Below, piece after piece: positions 7,595 to 59,583 of a stretch of DNA of 64,000 bases. Made by a program: the position numbers and the translations under genes. The stretch comes from Syntrophobacter sp. (lineage in GTDB: Bacteria > Desulfobacterota > Syntrophobacteria > Syntrophobacterales > Syntrophobacteraceae), in the NCBI GenBank assembly GCA_039679945.1, contig JBDKTY010000067.1, positions 2,414 to 66,413 on the forward strand. The letters run 5' to 3'. The notes below the pieces were generated by a model. It did no database searches. It had not been told where the DNA came from and saw only the letters and a list, made by a program, of their open reading frames with translations. Numbering within the stretch: the first letter of the stretch is position 1; each line of letters starts with the position of its first letter.

Positions 7595-8907
7595 ATGAAA
7601 AAAAGAACAGTATTCGCCACTTTGCTCGTCCTGACTCTTATAGCCCTGCAGGGACTCAAGGCTGAAGCCCGCAATCCGCTTGCAACGAACGACCAGTTAT
7701 ACGCGGAATACCTGGCTACATACATGATAGCAACTCCTGAAGTGGAGGCGGCAAAAGCAACGTTATCAACGAACTGGCAGGCCCTCCTCGGCACCGTGAG
7801 CGCCGAGCAACTGGCGTATCTCCAGGAAGCAGTCGATGAGTCGGCATTCGCATCGGCGCTTAGCGTGCAGGGCAGCGATCCCAACTATCCGAAGGCCATT
7901 TCGACTCTTGCGGCCCCACATTCCTGGCATGGCATGGATGTCCCCGGTTCCAGGTCGGTATTTGATAACCCTGACACGATTTACAGGAGTATCAAGATCG
8001 ATCCGACCGCGAGCTACGTAATTAGAGGCAAACGGGCACAGGTCCCGCCGGTGGATGAGAATTTTTCTCTGTGGGATGCTTCCAATAATACGATTTCGAA
8101 TATGCGGGGCAAGGACCTGGTCACAAAAGCGGACGGATCATTTACCATCACGGTGGACAGCAATCCCGCAAATGGCAGGAAGAACCACATCCAAACAACC
8201 TCGGCATCAAAAACCATATTTGTCCGGAATACCGTTAATGATTGGCAACTCAGAGGTTTACCAAATTGACTGTCGAACGGATCGACGATGGGACGACACT
8301 GCCCGACCCCAAGACGTTCGATGCCATGGTCAGTCAGATAGCTGCTTCCATTCCGAGCACCACCGCCATCAATATCTTCAATACCAGGGCGAATGCGCAG
8401 GCTGTCAATACAATCCCCGCTATAACCCGGGGAGGGAGCGCGGGGACCTTGTCAACCCAGGCGCAGGAATACAGTTCATGGAAGATTGCCGATGACGAGG
8501 CATTGATCGTAAAAGTCAACCTGGGCGGTGCAAAATACCTCATCTGCCCGGTTTATGATAAATGGCTGATCACAACGGACTACATCAACCATACGCAGAC
8601 CCTGAACAACGCCCAGGCAGTACCCAACCCCAATGGCACTTACACCTTCGTGATCTCCGTGCAGGACCCCGGTGTCTACAACTGGATCGATACGGTCGGA
8701 ATGCACGAGGGATATCTCAACCTCCGATGGCAGGCTCTGCCCGGCAAAGTCCCGGCGACCGGTGACGTATCGGCGACCATGAAACTTGTCAAACTGGTAT
8801 ATCTGAAAAGTATTCTCCCTCCCCATACCAAGTGGGTCACCAAGCAGGAACGCAAACAGCAACTCAGGGAACGCCGCGAGGCTTATGCGAAAAGATATGC
8901 GGAGTAA
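7595..8907 (+). pseudogene. Secreted DUF1214-like protein split by a single-base frameshift near 8240
   Basis: ORFs 7595-8269 and 8242-8907 abut in different frames. The second has no RBS or ATG. One extra G in GATTGGCAA would read ...FVRNTVNDWATQRFTKL... Motifs PPVDENFSLWD and NWIDT..GYLNLRWQ recall DUF1214. The signal peptide sits on the first part only. Confidence 0.6.
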
Positions 8908-8940: not shown

Positions 8941-9068
8941 TGATACGGAGTTGCGTTCAAGATGAGTCTATCCCTAAATCGAAGATCCCGTTCAGAATTG
9001 ACCCGTTCTACCCTTCGATACCTCAGGGCGAACGGGGGTATATCCTCTTGAACGCCAATTAGTATGAG
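8941..9068 (+). repeat. 128-nt structured intergenic repeat, copy 1
   Basis: 125/128 identical to 45643-45770. Closing inverted repeat GCGTTCAAGA (8953-8962) / TCTTGAACGC (9046-9055). Inner hairpin CCCGTTC...GAACGGG. Confidence 0.8.
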
Positions 9069-9189: not shown

Positions 9190-9588
9190 TCAGCTTCCGA
9201 GCTTCAGATTGATTACCTTGATTCCCTTTTTCCTGTAGCTCTCGAAGTGGACATCCGTGGTGTAAATCACTCGGACTCTTTCCGCGAGAAAACCGGCGAG
9301 AATCAGAGAATCGACGGCAGAGATACCCAGACCGTGACTGAGCGCCGCCGCCCTTGAAAGAATATCATTGTCTCTGAGCCAGAGAACCGTGCAGACAGCG
9401 GGAATTGCTTCGAGCAGAGTGGTTGCGCCCTCGATTCCTCTTTTCAGGCTCAGCATTTCGAGTTCAGAGAGGGTCAGGCAAGATACGACAGCCTCTTCTC
9501 TGTCCTCGATAAGGGCTTTCCACACGGAGACCGACGTCGAATTTCCCCGAAGAAACTCAATGAAGAAACCCGTATCAAGGCCGATCAT
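9190..9588 (-). CDS. vapC: PIN-domain toxin VapC
   Basis: MIGLDTGFFIEFL... is a typical PIN N-terminus with an acidic Asp. The protein is 132 aa and overlaps the upstream antitoxin by 14 nt. Confidence 0.85.
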   Translation of the reverse strand: MIGLDTGFFIEFLRGNSTSVSVWKALIEDREEAVVSCLTLSELEMLSLKRGIEGATTLLEAIPAVCTVLWLRDNDILSRAAALSHGLGISAVDSLILAGFLAERVRVIYTTDVHFESYRKKGIKVINLKLGS

Positions 9589-9805
9589 CGCCCCTCCCCT
9601 CCTCGACCATCCTGTCCACATCCGGGGCGACGTGAACTTTACCGGCGAGTTCCAGTGCTTTATTCCCCAAAGCCCTCTTTTGCTGGTCGATGAGGTATTT
9701 CTCGATGGCCTCCGCCACGAGACTGGAGACCGAGACCTGACGGTTGGCCGCGACACGCTTCAAGTTTTCACTCAATTTGTCCGGAATGCTGACGGTCATG
9801 CGCAT
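9575..9805 (-). CDS. vapB: Ribbon-helix-helix (CopG-like) antitoxin VapB
   Basis: MRMTVSIPDKLSENLKRVAANRQVSVSSLVAEAIEKYL is an RHH fold signature. AAGGAGG RBS lies 5 nt before the ATG at 9805. Confidence 0.8.
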   Translation of the reverse strand: MRMTVSIPDKLSENLKRVAANRQVSVSSLVAEAIEKYLIDQQKRALGNKALELAGKVHVAPDVDRMVEEGRGDDRP

Positions 9806-30202: not shown

Positions 30203-30360
30203 ATAGCATTCAAGACGCCACTGTTCCCGACCGTATCATGCAGAGTGAGCAAACCCCGCATGCGCGTGATAGAGCGCGGGGAACAAACAGCGTTGCATCC
30301 ACGCACCCCTGGCCCGTTCCACCCTTCGATACCTCTCAAGAAACAGCTTTTGAGAGGTAG
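30203..30360 (+). repeat. Mosaic of partial intergenic repeat units
   Basis: AAACCCCGCATGCGCGTG (30251-30268) is identical to 48641-48658. CCCGTTCCACCCTTCGATACCTC (30313-30335) matches the core of the 128-nt repeat. This is followed by hairpin CCTCTCAA/TTGAGAGG. Confidence 0.5.
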
Positions 30361-30405
30361 TAAAATCAAGGACTTATGGCATTGGTTGGAACCATGAATA
30401 ATCAC

Positions 30406-30597
30406 TTAAGCATGTTGAGCTTCGAGGGGTTCAATGCGGTACCCCAATGCTTTGGCCTTGCGCTTAAGATAGTTCAGGGTTCTTTTATGCATCATCTGGT
30501 CATAATGTTCCTGAGAACGCTCAGTGCGAACGGGGGTAAGTCCGCTTTCACATGGTGGTTTGATACTATTCGGAGCGAGCTTTTTTTTGAGAGGCAT
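30406..30597 (-). mobile_element. Probable C-terminal remnant of an IS110-family transposase
   Basis: The tail ...QEHYDQMMHKRTLNYLKRKAKALGYRIEPLE resembles, from memory, the conserved IS110-family C-terminus (..Y..R......L.R.L..LGY.V.LE). There is no room for the catalytic N-terminal part. Confidence 0.4.
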
Positions 30598-42780: not shown

Positions 42781-44721
42781 GTGCAAGTGGAGCATCACGA
42801 GATACTGAAATTGATGGGGAAACCCAACCTGGGCGAGGAGTCCGGCAAGGGCAGGGGCGAACAAACCGCCGAAATCTACATGCTTCTGCTCCATAAGGGG
42901 TTCCTTACGCCCGACCAGCTTAAGTACGCCGCAAGGGTACACTCCAAGCTATCAGGCAACCAGACTCTGCTCCAGGTACTGCAGGAACTCAGGTTCATCA
43001 CCCCCGAGCAGCTTGACGAAACGCTGGCCGCAAATCGACTGAATCTCAAAATCGGCGCTTTGCTGGTGGAACTCGGCCACATCACCAAGAACGAACTTGA
43101 AACCGCGATAAGCCTTCAGAAGGAAAGCACGACCCGGAAGACCATCGGTGAAATTCTGGTGGAAGGCGGTTTCCTCGAGGAGCGCAAGTTCCTGGAAGTA
43201 CTCTCCTACCAGTTGGGACTTCCGTTTCACCAGCTCGAACTCTCTAAAATCGAGCCGAATCTTTTGCGAAGAGCCCCGGCAAGGTGGTACTCGCAGCACG
43301 GCTTTCTTCCCATCGGGGTTGCCAACGGCCGCGTGACCGTCGCCTTTCCCGATCCCCTGAACCGCGACAGCATCGACGCAGCCGAAAAAACGTTCGGCAA
43401 AATCATTCCCTCTATCTGCAGCAGGAGCGATTTCCGCGAAATAGTCGCGGCCCTGGAACGTGACGCCACAAACGCCAGGGCAAATGAGCCGGATGAAAAA
43501 TCGGTCGTCAGTATAGTAAACTCCCTGATAGACGAGGCTGTCAAAAGCAAGACCAGTGACATCCACATCGAACCGACGCGCGACAAGGTCAGGGTCCGTT
43601 TCCGCATCGACGGGGTACTGGTCCAGCACCGGGACCTCCCGCCGGAAATGGGGCCGCCGCTTTCCAGCCGCCTGAAAATAATGTCCAAGTCCGACATCGC
43701 CGAGAGAAGAAGGCACCAGGGAGGCAGGATCCTTTTCGAGAATTCCAGGACGGGAACCACGCTGGACCTGCGTATCTCGTTTTTCGTGACCGTATGGGGC
43801 GAGACCATAGTAATCAGGCTCCTGAACACCAAGGCGCAGGTTCACGACCTCATGGAAATAGGGTTGTTTCCGAAGATCCTGGACCGATTTCGCTTCGACG
43901 CACTCGACCTGCCGAGCGGCGTGATCATGGTCACCGGGCCGACCGGCTCGGGGAAAACCACCACCCTCTACAGCGCGATTAACTACCTGGAAAACGTCAA
44001 CACATGCATCGTCACGGTGGAAGACCCGGTCGAATACCTGCTGGACGGCATCGCGCAATGTTCGATCGATCCCAAAATCAACCTCACTTTCGAGGAAAGC
44101 CTCAGGCACGTCGTCAGGCAGGACCCCGACATCATAGTAATCGGGGAGGTGCGCGATCAGTTCTCGGCCGAGACATGCATACAGGCATCCCTCACGGGCC
44201 ATAAGGTCCTCACCACCTTCCATACCGAAGACAGCATCGGGTGCCTGATCCGGCTCCTGAACATGAACATCGAACCATTTCTCATCTCCTCCACGGTGGT
44301 GGGCGTGGTGGCGCAGAGGCTTCTCAGGAAGATCTGTCCGCATTGCGCCGAACCCTACGTCCCGAAGGCGCCAGAGCTTTACCGGCTCGGATACACGGCG
44401 GCGGACATCAAGGGCGCCAAATTCAGATTGGGACGGGGATGCGGCGAGTGCCGCTTCACGGGCTACAAAGGCAGGCTGGGAGCATTTGAACTCCTCGTGC
44501 TGAACGAACCGGTGAAGGATGCCGTGCTCACGAAGAAAACATCCTATGAAGTCAGACGAATCAGTATGGACACCTCCGGATTGGTGACTCTGCTCGAGGA
44601 TGGAATCATGAAGGCGGTTAACGGCACGACATCCCTCCAGGAGGTATTCCGGTCCCTGCCGCGCGTCGTAAAACCACGGCCTATCGCGGAACTCCGCAGA
44701 CTGTTAGGAACAGAACAATGA
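42781..44721 (+). CDS. GspE/PilB/MshE-family secretion ATPase with tandem N-terminal T2SSE_N (MshEN-like) modules
   Basis: Walker A GPTGSGKTTT, Asp/His boxes, and the tetra-Cys CPHC...CGEC. The N-terminus carries KIGALLVELGHITKNELETAISLQ and TIGEILVEGGFLEERKFLEVLSYQ. The exact start is uncertain (GTG 42781 or 42787). Confidence 0.92.
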   Translation: MQVEHHEILKLMGKPNLGEESGKGRGEQTAEIYMLLLHKGFLTPDQLKYAARVHSKLSGNQTLLQVLQELRFITPEQLDETLAANRLNLKIGALLVELGHITKNELETAISLQKESTTRKTIGEILVEGGFLEERKFLEVLSYQLGLPFHQLELSKIEPNLLRRAPARWYSQHGFLPIGVANGRVTVAFPDPLNRDSIDAAEKTFGKIIPSICSRSDFREIVAALERDATNARANEPDEKSVVSIVNSLIDEAVKSKTSDIHIEPTRDKVRVRFRIDGVLVQHRDLPPEMGPPLSSRLKIMSKSDIAERRRHQGGRILFENSRTGTTLDLRISFFVTVWGETIVIRLLNTKAQVHDLMEIGLFPKILDRFRFDALDLPSGVIMVTGPTGSGKTTTLYSAINYLENVNTCIVTVEDPVEYLLDGIAQCSIDPKINLTFEESLRHVVRQDPDIIVIGEVRDQFSAETCIQASLTGHKVLTTFHTEDSIGCLIRLLNMNIEPFLISSTVVGVVAQRLLRKICPHCAEPYVPKAPELYRLGYTAADIKGAKFRLGRGCGECRFTGYKGRLGAFELLVLNEPVKDAVLTKKTSYEVRRISMDTSGLVTLLEDGIMKAVNGTTSLQEVFRSLPRVVKPRPIAELRRLLGTEQ

Positions 44722-45575
44722 GCCATGAGAAAAGCACGCAATCGCTGTTGGACATAGTCAAGGAGTACGCCTCCTCCGAAAAACTCGCCCTCCCGGTATT
44801 TCCCTCCGTCGCGAACCAGCTTCAACAGGTGATGGCGGATACCGAGGTGCCGATCGAACAGATAGCCGAAATAATCGGCCGGGACCAGGCACTGACCAGC
44901 CAGATCCTCAAGATGGCCAACTCCGCCTTCTTTTCCGGGCTGAACCGGGTGCGCACCATTCGCGAGGCGCTCCTGCGCATGGGTACGAACCAGGTTTTCA
45001 ACTGCCTGATCGTGAGCGCTCAGAAGGACCTCTACAAATCCAAAAACGCAATCATCGACGGCTATCTCGTGACCTTATGGAAACACGCCCTGGCAACGGC
45101 CATGGGGACTAAATGGCTGTTGAAGAAAACGGGCTACGCGGAACTGGCGGAAGAAGGATTCCTCGCGGGGTTGCTTCACGACATCGGAAAACTGCTGCTG
45201 CTCAGGGTACTCGAGAACCTGAACTCCGAAAACGCGGAACTCAAGTTCTCGAATGAATTCATTACCGAAATCCTCGACTCGATGCACGTCGAACAGGGCT
45301 ATAATCTCATGGAGGAATGGAGCATTCCGCCCATCTATTGCGGCATAGTCCGTGACCATCACACCGAGGATTTCGACAGCTCGGATGTCCAGCTTCTGGC
45401 GGTGAGAATCGCCAACCAGTTGTGCCGCAAGGTGAGCATCAGCCTGCACCCGGAGAATAATATCGTCCCGGCCACCCTCCCCGAAGTCCATGCGCTGGGC
45501 ATCAGGGAAATCATCCTGGCCGAAATGGAGATTGTACTGGAAGACGCCATGGATTCGGAACTGGTGGGGAAGTGA
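44718..45575 (+). CDS. HDOD domain signalling protein
   Basis: LPVFPSVANQLQQVM...ILKMANSAFF...GLLHDIGKLLL. ATGA overlap with the ATPase gene. Confidence 0.88.
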   Translation: MSHEKSTQSLLDIVKEYASSEKLALPVFPSVANQLQQVMADTEVPIEQIAEIIGRDQALTSQILKMANSAFFSGLNRVRTIREALLRMGTNQVFNCLIVSAQKDLYKSKNAIIDGYLVTLWKHALATAMGTKWLLKKTGYAELAEEGFLAGLLHDIGKLLLLRVLENLNSENAELKFSNEFITEILDSMHVEQGYNLMEEWSIPPIYCGIVRDHHTEDFDSSDVQLLAVRIANQLCRKVSISLHPENNIVPATLPEVHALGIREIILAEMEIVLEDAMDSELVGK

Positions 45576-45642
45576 GGCGGGGCAGGCTCGCCAGGCGCCC
45601 GCCCCCCCCGTTCATACCGGGCTATTGAAGCATGAACGGGAG

Positions 45643-45770
45643 TGATACGGAGTTGCGTTCAAGATGAGTCTATCCCTAAATTGAAGATGCCGTTCAGAAT
45701 TGACCCGTTCTACCCTTCGATACCTCGGGGCGAACGGGGGTATATCCTCTTGAACGCCAATTAGTATGAG
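45643..45770 (+). repeat. 128-nt structured intergenic repeat, copy 2
   Basis: Only 3 substitutions relative to 8941-9068. It is flanked by further CCCGTTC/GAACGGG hairpins (45608-45641, 45906-45935). Confidence 0.8.
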
Positions 45771-45968: not shown

Positions 45969-46007
45969 CCCGTTCGCCCCGAGCAGGGTATCGAAAGGGA
46001 GAACGGG
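45969..46007 (-). repeat. Inverted partial copy (core hairpin) of the structured repeat
   Basis: CCCGTTCGCCCCGAGCAGGGTATCGAAAGGGAGAACGGG matches the reverse complement of the copy-1 core (CCCGTTCGCCCTGAGGTATCGAAGGGTAGAACGGG). Confidence 0.45.
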
Positions 46008-46048: not shown

Positions 46049-47350
46049 CTAGTGCTTGAACGCCCGCTGCCCGGTCAGCACCATCGTGACATCGGCCTCG
46101 TTGCAGGCATCGATCACTTCCCAGTCACGCATGGACCCGCCAGGCTGGACCACCGCCGATATGCCCTGCCGGATTCCGACGTCCACGCCGTCCCGGAACG
46201 GGAAGAACGCATCGGACACCATGGAGGCGCCTTTCAAGCCGGCCTTGGCCCCGGCGGTCAAAGCGTCGATCTCCTCTTTCTCCTCCTTCGGACGCTCCCC
46301 CTTCTCTATCGCAAGCTCAAGCTCCTTGTAAGGCAGCCCGTATTTGTCAAAGCAGACCGCATCGGCGTATTTCTGGTAGGCCTTGTATACGGCGATCTCC
46401 GCGACTCCCACCCGGTCCTGCTCGCCCGTGCCGATCCCCACCGTGCATTCATCCTTCACGTACAGAACGGAATTGGACGTAACTCCCTGTTCGACAAACC
46501 ATCCGAACAGCAGATCGGCCATCTCCTTTTCACTCGGCTGACGCCGGATCTTGTGGATCTTGTCCTTGTAAGAGGACTCGGCCAGTTTGAAGTCTTCCGG
46601 TCCCTTTATCTTGTTGAGCGCGGACTGCTGCACGATCAGTCCGCCATCGATCAACGACTTGAAGTCCACGAATCGCTGGTTGATGTAATCGGCGAGCCGG
46701 TCCATCCTGGAGACCTGGATGATGCGAAGACTAGGCCTCTTTTTGAGAATGGCCAGGGAACCCTCGGCATAGTCGGGGGCGGCCACGACCTCGAGGTAAT
46801 TTTCGGATATCAGTTCGGCTGTCGTTTTGTCCACCGGACGGTTCAGCACGAGGCAGCCACCGAACGCCGCGATACGGTCGGCCCGGTTTGCGCGGTGGTA
46901 TGCATCGGCAAGACTTTTTCCGTAAGCCGCCCCGCAGGGATTGTTGTGTTTGAGGATGACGGCGGCCGGTTTTTGCATCAGATACTTAATGATATTCAGA
47001 CCGTTGTCGAGGTCCGTCAGGTTGATTTTTCCCGGATGCTTTCCTTCCTGCGGCATATCCTCTTCCCGGATGGCGCTGACAAGGCCCTTCCCCGGATCAA
47101 TGAACCCGCAGCCTCCAAGGGTCAGATTTCCGGACACCATCTCGTATAACGCGGCCTCCTGCCCCGGGTTTTCGCCGTATCGCAGCCCTTTTTCAATCAG
47201 CTCACCGGTTTTACCGTCCGGGAATTTCCATGATCTCTTACGATAGACCAATTCCTGGTCTCCGAAGGTGATTCGAAGCGAATCCGGGAAATGGTCCTCC
47301 ATAACTGTACGGTACATTTTCTTGAGATCCTCGGCCATCATCTCCTCCAT
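46049..47350 (-). CDS. purH: AICAR transformylase-type PurH homolog lacking the N-terminal IMP cyclohydrolase (MGS-like) domain
   Basis: ILKHNNPCGAA and C-terminal SDAFFPFRDGVD...VQPGGSMRD...LTGQRAFKH. The protein is only ~430 aa. The start is uncertain (47338-47350). Confidence 0.85.
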   Translation of the reverse strand: MEEMMAEDLKKMYRTVMEDHFPDSLRITFGDQELVYRKRSWKFPDGKTGELIEKGLRYGENPGQEAALYEMVSGNLTLGGCGFIDPGKGLVSAIREEDMPQEGKHPGKINLTDLDNGLNIIKYLMQKPAAVILKHNNPCGAAYGKSLADAYHRANRADRIAAFGGCLVLNRPVDKTTAELISENYLEVVAAPDYAEGSLAILKKRPSLRIIQVSRMDRLADYINQRFVDFKSLIDGGLIVQQSALNKIKGPEDFKLAESSYKDKIHKIRRQPSEKEMADLLFGWFVEQGVTSNSVLYVKDECTVGIGTGEQDRVGVAEIAVYKAYQKYADAVCFDKYGLPYKELELAIEKGERPKEEKEEIDALTAGAKAGLKGASMVSDAFFPFRDGVDVGIRQGISAVVQPGGSMRDWEVIDACNEADVTMVLTGQRAFKH

Positions 47351-47501
47351 TGGGTGGTTTAATACCCGCATTACTAGAACAGCCGACGGCCTGAAATCAA
47401 ATAAAACTTGCTCCCGGCGGCGATCGGGTAAATAATTCATGCTTCATAGCGTCTCGGGATATGAGGACTCACGCGGTTCCAACGGGCGAAAGGAGCATTC
47501 G

Positions 47502-48606: not shown

Positions 48607-48750
48607 TGATCACTCAATGGCCGTTCGCCTTGAGTGGAGTAAACCCCGCATGCGCGTGGCGAGGGCCTTAAGGTGACCGTGTTGAAGGCGAGCGCTCCTG
48701 GCGCGTTATACCCTTCGGTTCCCCGGGACGAAGGGGTCATTGAGTGATCG
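48607..48750. repeat. Diverged member of the structured repeat family (candidate ncRNA or REP element)
   Basis: Perfect 12-bp closing inverted repeat GATCACTCAATG (48608-48619) / CATTGAGTGATC (48738-48749). 3' hairpin CCCTTCG-11 nt-CGAAGGG (48711-48735) is in the same position as in the 128-nt unit. Confidence 0.45.
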
Positions 48751-59196: not shown

Positions 59197-59320
59197 TAAT
59201 ACGGAATTGCGTTCAAGATGAATCTTTCCCGAGAGTGACGGCGCCGATGAGAATTGGCTCCACCCTTCGATACCTCACGGCGAACGGGAGACGTATCATC
59301 TTGAACGCGAAATAGTATAA
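59197..59320 (+). repeat. Structured intergenic repeat, diverged copy 3a
   Basis: Shares ATACGGAATTGCGTTCAAGATGA, CACCCTTCGATACCTCACGGCGAACGGGAG and TCATCTTGAACGC with the other copies. The closing helix is a perfect 13 bp (59209-59221 / 59296-59308). Confidence 0.65.
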
Positions 59321-59437
59321 TACGAGGTTGCGTTCAGAGGTATCCGCCATAAAAGGTGGACATCCGGGTCAACACTCGCTCGTTCATGTTTCGATACCCC
59401 GTCGCGAACGGGAGTGTATCCTCTCGAACACAAATGA
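59318..59437 (+). repeat. Structured intergenic repeat, diverged copy 3b (tandem to 3a)
   Basis: ATACGAGGTTGCGTTCAGAGG ... TTTCGATACCCCGTCGCGAACGGGAG ... CCTCTCGAACAC. The closing helix is kept with a different sequence. Confidence 0.55.
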
Positions 59438-59583
59438 CTTTAAATGGTTCGCCACCGGGCATAAGACCACGTCATTCCGATCGGAGTCCTCGTATTCCCG
59501 GACGATAACTCCCCCCGTCCGCGCCGGGGTGCCGATAGGTGGAACGGGCCTGTGTGCGGTGGAACGTATAGAAGAGGATTCCA

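Follow-up and report, generated by a model that had tools for sequence, protein, structure and literature searches.

The RUP element of Streptococcus pneumoniae is 107 bp long, is present in 108 copies, has inverted repeats like those of IS630-Spn1 and inserts at TA (PMC2229807). It has been attributed to IS630-Spn1, the presumed source in trans of its transposase (PMC2229807). Elements of the IS630/Tc1/mariner group classically duplicate TA on insertion (PMC2170065; PMC7386202), and three-base duplications have been reported for some of their eukaryotic relatives, such as TAA in Fot/pogo (PMC7386202). A MITE family is also known from a related deltaproteobacterial-type lineage: Chunjie of Geobacter uraniireducens (cited in PMC10969869), recently active and 235 bp long with conserved inverted and direct repeats, which differs in sequence from the family reported here. 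A literature search returned no paper connecting MITEs with Syntrophobacter.

A 64-kb stretch (hereafter the window; positions 2414-66413 of contig C67) of a Syntrophobacter assembly of 6.36 Mb in 302 contigs was characterized. The original prediction had singled out a hairpin-rich unit of 128 nt at 8941-9068 and 45643-45770. Re-reading confirmed that these stretches are nearly identical (125/128; the three substitutions are ATCG/ATTG, GATCCC/GATGCC and CTCAGGG/CTCGGGG) and that the flanking DNA is unrelated. All three predicted features could be confirmed: the inverted repeat GCGTTCAAGA/TCTTGAACGC, the ATAC/GTAT arms outside it and, at 9002-9036, the inner hairpin CCCGTTC...GAACGGG. The 128-nt unit did not stand as a boundary. 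When the copies were aligned with their flanks, the element was limited by TAC...GTA and measured 121 bp; the predicted unit is made up of a 3-bp TGA, the 121-bp element, a second 3-bp TGA and one chance G. Copy 1 occupies 8944-9064 on the plus strand, has three mismatches to the family consensus and lies between TGA at 8941-8943 and TGA at 9065-9067. Copy 2 occupies 45646-45766, also on the plus strand, has two mismatches to the consensus and lies between TGA at 45643-45645 and TGA at 45767-45769; its inner hairpin is at 45704-45738 (plus strand). In copy 1, the left terminal inverted repeat is TACGGAGTTGCGTTCAAGA (8944-8962, plus strand), the hairpin CCCGTTC-TA-CCCT-loop-AGGG-C-GAACGGG spans 9002-9036 (plus strand) and the right terminal inverted repeat is TCTTGAACGCCAATTAGTA (9046-9064, plus strand).

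Both window copies are in convergent intergenic regions, as had been proposed. Copy 1 lies between an unknown ORF (8242-8907, plus strand) and a PIN-domain gene (9190-9756, minus strand), and copy 2 between an HDOD gene (44718-45575, plus strand) and purH (46049-47440, minus strand). The 121 bp have no coding capacity, in agreement with the prediction; they have no room for a transposase or any other recognizable gene, and the only ORFs that overlap the element are run-throughs from its flanks. The spacer that holds copy 2 is a mosaic of repeats, about 250-325 nt longer than the corresponding spacers of relatives, with more hairpin variants at 45608-45641 and 45969-46007 (CCCGTTCATACCGGGCTATTGAAGCATGAACGGG, and an inverted core). 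A different repeat is present at 48607-48750 of the window, where a 12-bp inverted repeat, GATCACTCAATG / CATTGAGTGATC, surrounds a CCCTTCG...CGAAGGG hairpin and the superfamily ends described below are absent.

The terminal inverted repeats are imperfect and 19 bp long: TACGGAGTTGCGTTCAAGA and the reverse complement of the right end, TACTAATTTGCGTTCAAGA, agree at 16 of 19 positions and share a perfect 12-bp core, TTGCGTTCAAGA. Identical 3-bp flanks were found in 70 of 86 young copies, and in 68 of these 70 the flank was TNA (TGA 20, TCA 19, TTA 17, TAA 12); the remaining two were TCG and TTG, one each. Among older copies, the flanks were identical in 18 of 24. Without duplication, a flanking base would be expected to match in about 25% of cases. 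Because the middle base varies freely yet matches on both sides, the flanking trinucleotide is a target-site duplication and not part of the element. The target context is weakly palindromic, tC|TNA|Ga.

The family is far larger than the two copies that had been predicted. A BLAST search of the assembly gave 143 matches of at least 115 nt, distributed over both strands, and 22 of these lay at the end of a contig. Once the boundaries had been fixed, 109 full-length copies were counted at an identity of at least 90%, on both strands and on many contigs, together with at least 24 older copies at about 72-89%. Exact matches to the 12-mer core of the inverted repeat number 264 genome-wide, compared with 0 in a reversed-sequence control. 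Young copies have on average about two mismatches to the 121-nt consensus, 11 are identical to it, and the mean pairwise identity is 96%. The 125/128 identity of the window pair is thus the norm for the family, and the gene conversion or strong selection that had been invoked to account for near-identity at a distance is not needed. A local hop, with the window copies as closest kin, was also considered. The two have one rare base in common, yet other copies are equally close or closer. The window copies are ordinary members of a recent burst and not a special pair.

Two older copies were also present in the window. The first, at 59200-59317 on the plus strand, is about 78% identical and is flanked by TAA at 59197-59199 and 59318-59320. 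The second (59321-59438, plus strand, the end coordinate being approximate as the right end is degenerate) is more decayed and adjoins the first, the TAA between them being common to both. Copies elsewhere are often in tandem or tens of bases apart, sometimes with one TNA in common (window 59197-59441, C93:1511-1754 and C79:28710-28984), and 6 nt are missing from the junction of the C93 dimer. Such tandem arrangements suggest that new MITE copies insert into the target that an older copy has duplicated.

The same ends delimit many other subfamilies, about 100-375 bp long and with different interiors, both in this genome and across the genus. The pattern T.ATAY-N4-TYGCGTTCAAG was found 370 times in the genome and 0 times in the reversed-sequence control; the base that precedes TAC in this superfamily pattern is random, as TNA predicts. 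The young family and its sister subfamilies amount to about 185 elements, and of the 604 contig ends, 41 have a core within 140 nt. The same inverted repeats also bound MITEs about 300 bp long, for example at C17:2324-2615, C79:35395-35695 and C36:7611-7915. Their interior contains the repeat AGGCGTAGCCAGGAAACAGCGCTGTGTCCGCTCGATTCCGG, a hairpin and GGAAGTTCCTGTTCCGGAATGGCGTGACCCG, a module that is the source of about 40 'solo' hairpin matches.

The young subfamily appears to be specific to its lineage. No full-length copy was found in the genomes of 38 other species of the genus, and searches of public genome contigs with an exact 36-mer and of metagenome contigs with an exact 25-mer did not find the subfamily. 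A 20-mer of the inverted repeat matched only other MITE subfamilies, in MAGs of Syntrophobacteraceae and Desulfarculales. No precise empty site was found in genomes of the genus, where the best flank match was 76% identical, and a BLAST search within the genome for the excised site returned no paralogous empty site, only artefacts of tandem copies. Logan contigs from two runs that encode an identical HDOD protein end inside the MITE, 94 nt past the HDOD stop and about 24 nt into the repeat. In relatives whose HDOD proteins are 93% and 85% identical, the HDOD-purH spacer is 148 and 219 nt long and has no element, compared with 473 nt here, and the spacers cannot be aligned. These element-free spacers fit a late insertion, short of proof.

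A partner able to supply a transposase was sought among all occurrences of the 12-mer core that do not belong to MITE-sized pairs, and this led to the ends of contigs C242, C236 and C273. At each of these, TNA and TACTAAGTTGCGTTCAAG are followed by the start or the end of a transposase. The start is a winged-helix ORF with the N-terminal sequence MGRKINV..., which continues into an A8 tract; at the opposite end, a C-terminus containing LPPYSPELNPTEHIWDHIRE reads out through the repeat. The partner IS is represented in the assembly by these three ends only, the middle of the transposase gene being absent from it. Complete 1137-bp copies with the same ends were found in sister species of the genus, in which two frames are joined at a slippery run, TTTAAAAAAA. 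Their conceptual fusion matched the NF033545 model for IS630-family transposases at 171.5 bits (cut-off 100), as well as DDE_3 and HTH_33, and includes the motif ...PPYSPELNP.EHIW....

The likeness between MITE and IS is confined to the ends. Between 17 and 18 of the 19 terminal bases are common to the MITE and the IS ends of its own genome, and the asymmetry between left and right is kept. The left repeat of copy 1 is similar to the left end of IS630-family elements, where the transposase starts (AAGATGAGTCTA in the MITE and AAGATAAATCTA in the IS), and the reverse complement of its right repeat resembles the IS630-type right end on C236, with about 22-23 of 26 positions alike as judged by eye. 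Beyond about 25-30 nt at each end, the two have no sequence in common. This end-specific resemblance fits descent from, and recognition by, an IS630-type lineage. The TA dinucleotide duplication of textbook IS630 elements was found neither for the MITE nor for the full-length ISs of the clade, both of which have TNA; the TNA flanks matched in 11 of 13 full-length ISs in sister species. TNA is therefore a departure of the whole IS clade from the textbook rule and not a mismatch between MITE and IS. Because IS630/Tc1/mariner elements classically duplicate TA, the assignment of the partner rests on the similarity of the ends together with the same TNA flanks around full-length ISs. A 47%-identical IS630 relative on Paraburkholderia plasmids has both copies flanked by TTA, which is compatible equally with TA or TNA.

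Two other candidate partners were discarded. The first was an IS1634-family transposase gene at C210:1-1460 (NF033559; interrupted where the contig begins), with about 60 nt between its end and a truncated MITE right end. Its relatives in the genus, 62-85% identical, have no such ends, and C210 is therefore an IS lying against a truncated MITE, the IS having probably inserted into, or next to, a MITE copy. An inverted pair of the repeat core on C9, 1153 bp in extent, was not an IS; it holds a short MITE and an unrelated gene.

As in MITEs generally, the element is small (the usual limit being about 600 bp) and non-coding, with terminal inverted repeats, variable target duplications, many dispersed copies and ends that match those of an autonomous IS. 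Its closest analogue is the RUP/IS630-Spn1 pair. Like RUP, it is about 100-120 bp long, is present in about 100 copies that are highly identical, non-coding and mostly intergenic, and has IS630-family-like inverted repeats. Unlike RUP, which inserts at TA, it duplicates TNA; it also differs in sequence, in host phylum and in its 19-bp inverted repeat, carries a REP-like hairpin and has many sister subfamilies with the same ends in one genome. The partner IS, about 1.1 kb long with short inverted repeats, a T...A-centred target and NF033545, DDE_3 and HTH_33 matches, resembles IS630, ISY100 and Tc1-mariner elements. It departs from classical IS630 elements and their TA in that three bases with a free middle base are duplicated, both by the MITE (68 cases) and by the full-length ISs. 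Duplication of TNA is known from Tc4 and Tc5 of C. elegans.

We consider it very probable that the 121-bp unit is a non-autonomous MITE linked to an IS630-family IS, amplified in a recent burst and carrying a REP-like hairpin as cargo. It would keep only what a transposase needs, two imperfect 19-bp inverted repeats of the form TAC-NNNN-TTGCGTTCAAGA and a few subterminal bases. The driver would be an IS630-family (Tc1/mariner-type) transposase with a winged-helix N-terminus and a DDE_3 catalytic domain, read from two frames with a -1 frameshift at an A7-A8 run between them. The 121-bp MITE is probably moved by such a transposase, judging from the shared ends. Acting in trans, the enzyme would bind the repeats, excise the element and paste it into a T-N-A target (tC|TNA|Ga), duplicating three bases. 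A recent burst within a species-level lineage would have produced about 110 copies, on average 96% identical, with the CCCGTTC...GAACGGG hairpin carried along, and the family may still be active.

The inner hairpin is a separate REP-like module, which occurs alone and in sister MITE subfamilies. REP/BIME elements are found in proteobacteria, and IS110/IS1111-family elements insert into them. The hairpin has a folding energy of -16 to -20 kcal/mol and a conserved loop, TTCGAYAC.... The pattern CCGTTC-N(16-32)-GAACGG was found 253 times in the genome and 25 times in the control, which corresponds to about 230 such hairpins. When 239 hairpins of typical length were sorted by position, 94 lay in young MITE copies, 68 near other superfamily inverted repeats and 77 far from any. 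A solo hairpin, GGCCCGCTCCACCCTCCGATACCTCACGGCGAACGGGG, was seen at L132:3358-3578 (Logan SRR32253583; HDOD 85% identical), in the orthologous HDOD-purH spacer of a relative and without MITE ends; the hairpin therefore spreads or persists independently of the MITE. In three MITE copies, at C186:1-300, C253:24410-24553 and C299:29895-30128, the hairpin loop is split by another multi-copy element, the end of which encodes the C-terminus of an IS110-family transposase (PF02371, 23.6 bits; cut-off 21.3). An IS110-type element appears to use the REP-like hairpin as a site-specific target. A split hairpin is also present at 30313-30535 of the window, with halves at 30313-30335 and 30519-30535 and about 183 nt between them. 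The likeness to REP/BIME elements lies in an imperfect inner palindrome of 33-35 nt that is abundant, intergenic, present in both orientations and a landing site for an IS110-family element. The differences are that no associated RAYT gene was found in the genome and that the palindrome here also travels inside a DDE-type MITE.

The original prediction had left open whether the unit was mobile DNA or a structured RNA. If it were a structured RNA gene or a 3'-UTR element (a stabilizer or terminator) under selection, the long helix and the inner hairpin would form a functional fold. Both strands do fold somewhat better than shuffled sequences (z = -2.0 and -2.8), and both window copies lie 3' of plus-strand genes. 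Compensatory changes were also found in the inner hairpin across the genome: of 86 distinct variants, 14 have U-A in place of C-G at one inner-stem pair, and 14 have G-C in place of C-G at another. This covariation is modest evidence, and the variants may derive from one or two events. The family as a whole does not behave in this way. Copies are found in all gene contexts (convergent 19, divergent 13, tandem 38), and in tandem contexts 17 are co-oriented with the genes and 21 opposed, so that there is no orientation bias. An Rfam scan of the window reached the gathering score only at a tRNA elsewhere, and in a permissive scan of the element the best match was a snoRNA model at E = 0.48. No terminator-like or promoter-like site was found in the element, nor any terminator-like T-run. 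The mixed contexts, the lack of orientation bias and the lack of Rfam, terminator or promoter matches argue against an orientation-dependent RNA role. The target duplications and the matching IS account for the presumed 'closing helix' and 'outer arms' as inverted repeats and duplicated target. When copies were excised in silico, 10 of 79 insertion sites fell in an open frame of at least 250 aa, compared with 77% of random positions, which shows the bias of the family towards intergenic DNA. An RNA function for the unit is very unlikely, and the RNA part of the prediction is not supported, although individual copies may have a secondary, exapted effect as RNA.

Given mobile DNA, it remains to be asked which transposase is responsible. 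IS5 elements of the IS1031 and IS427 groups and Harbinger-like elements are the textbook makers of 3-bp TNA duplications, and such a duplication is the hallmark commonly given for the IS1031 group of IS5, which makes a MITE of one of these kinds a first candidate. The genome has no DDE_Tnp_1_2 (PF13586) gene, however, and the few PF13586 genes of the genus lack matching ends. A core-like motif beside some of the latter proved to be inside coding sequence and not at an end. The DDE_Tnp_1 (PF01609) genes of the genome are not flanked by a repeat of the MITE kind, and the same ends and TNA flanks belong instead to IS630-family elements. We regard an IS5 or Harbinger-like origin as extremely improbable. 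The other possibility is that a REP-associated tyrosine transposase (RAYT), and not a DDE transposase, spreads the whole unit as an element of REP/BIME type. This reading draws on the REP-like character of the central hairpin (its copy number, conserved loop, covarying stem and solo intergenic copies) and on the presence of Y1_Tnp genes in the genome. REPs have neither terminal inverted repeats nor target duplications, whereas the 121-bp unit has both, and no Y1_Tnp gene of the genome is flanked by the hairpin. For the 121-bp unit we give this explanation almost no credence, while for the solo hairpins it may apply. Three Y1_Tnp (IS200-like) matches, at C148:552-878, C8:576-899 and C247:555-878, fall within open frames of 313-338 aa and are each situated about 550 nt from the end of a contig, a picture that resembles a multi-copy element whose tyrosine-transposase gene is unusually long. 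The suggestion that the unit is 'MITE-like or REP-like' can accordingly be divided. Inverted repeats, 3-bp duplications, over 100 young copies, a preference for intergenic DNA and a matching IS bear out the MITE part for the unit as a whole, and REP-like applies to the inner hairpin only.

The 121-bp element, read as a MITE of an IS630-family IS, is ordinary selfish DNA; it is mildly unusual in that it duplicates TNA and in that its REP-like hairpin cargo serves an IS110-family element as a target. For annotation, these MITEs should be masked, and neither RNAs nor small ORFs should be called inside them. The young family and its sister subfamilies account for a good part of the fragmentation of the assembly. 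The young family also offers a clean and dated case of a lineage-specific burst of MITEs in an uncultured syntroph. The 68, 18 and 11 junctions at young copies, older copies and full-length ISs support the existence of an IS630 branch in which TNA and not TA is duplicated, a point of relevance to the evolution of the target-cut stagger in IS630/Tc1/mariner elements. A bolder and more doubtful proposal, which we offer only tentatively, is that the element belongs to a widespread, poorly documented IS630 branch with TAC... ends and a 3-nt staggered cut at T-N-A, and that its hairpin acts as a landing pad for the IS110-family element. If this were true, a MITE burst would raise the number of target sites available to a second transposon, unrelated to the first, in a parasitic relationship of three layers. 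The hairpin module, as an apparent target of the IS110-family element, offers a small natural system in which to study the spread of one mobile element's target by another.
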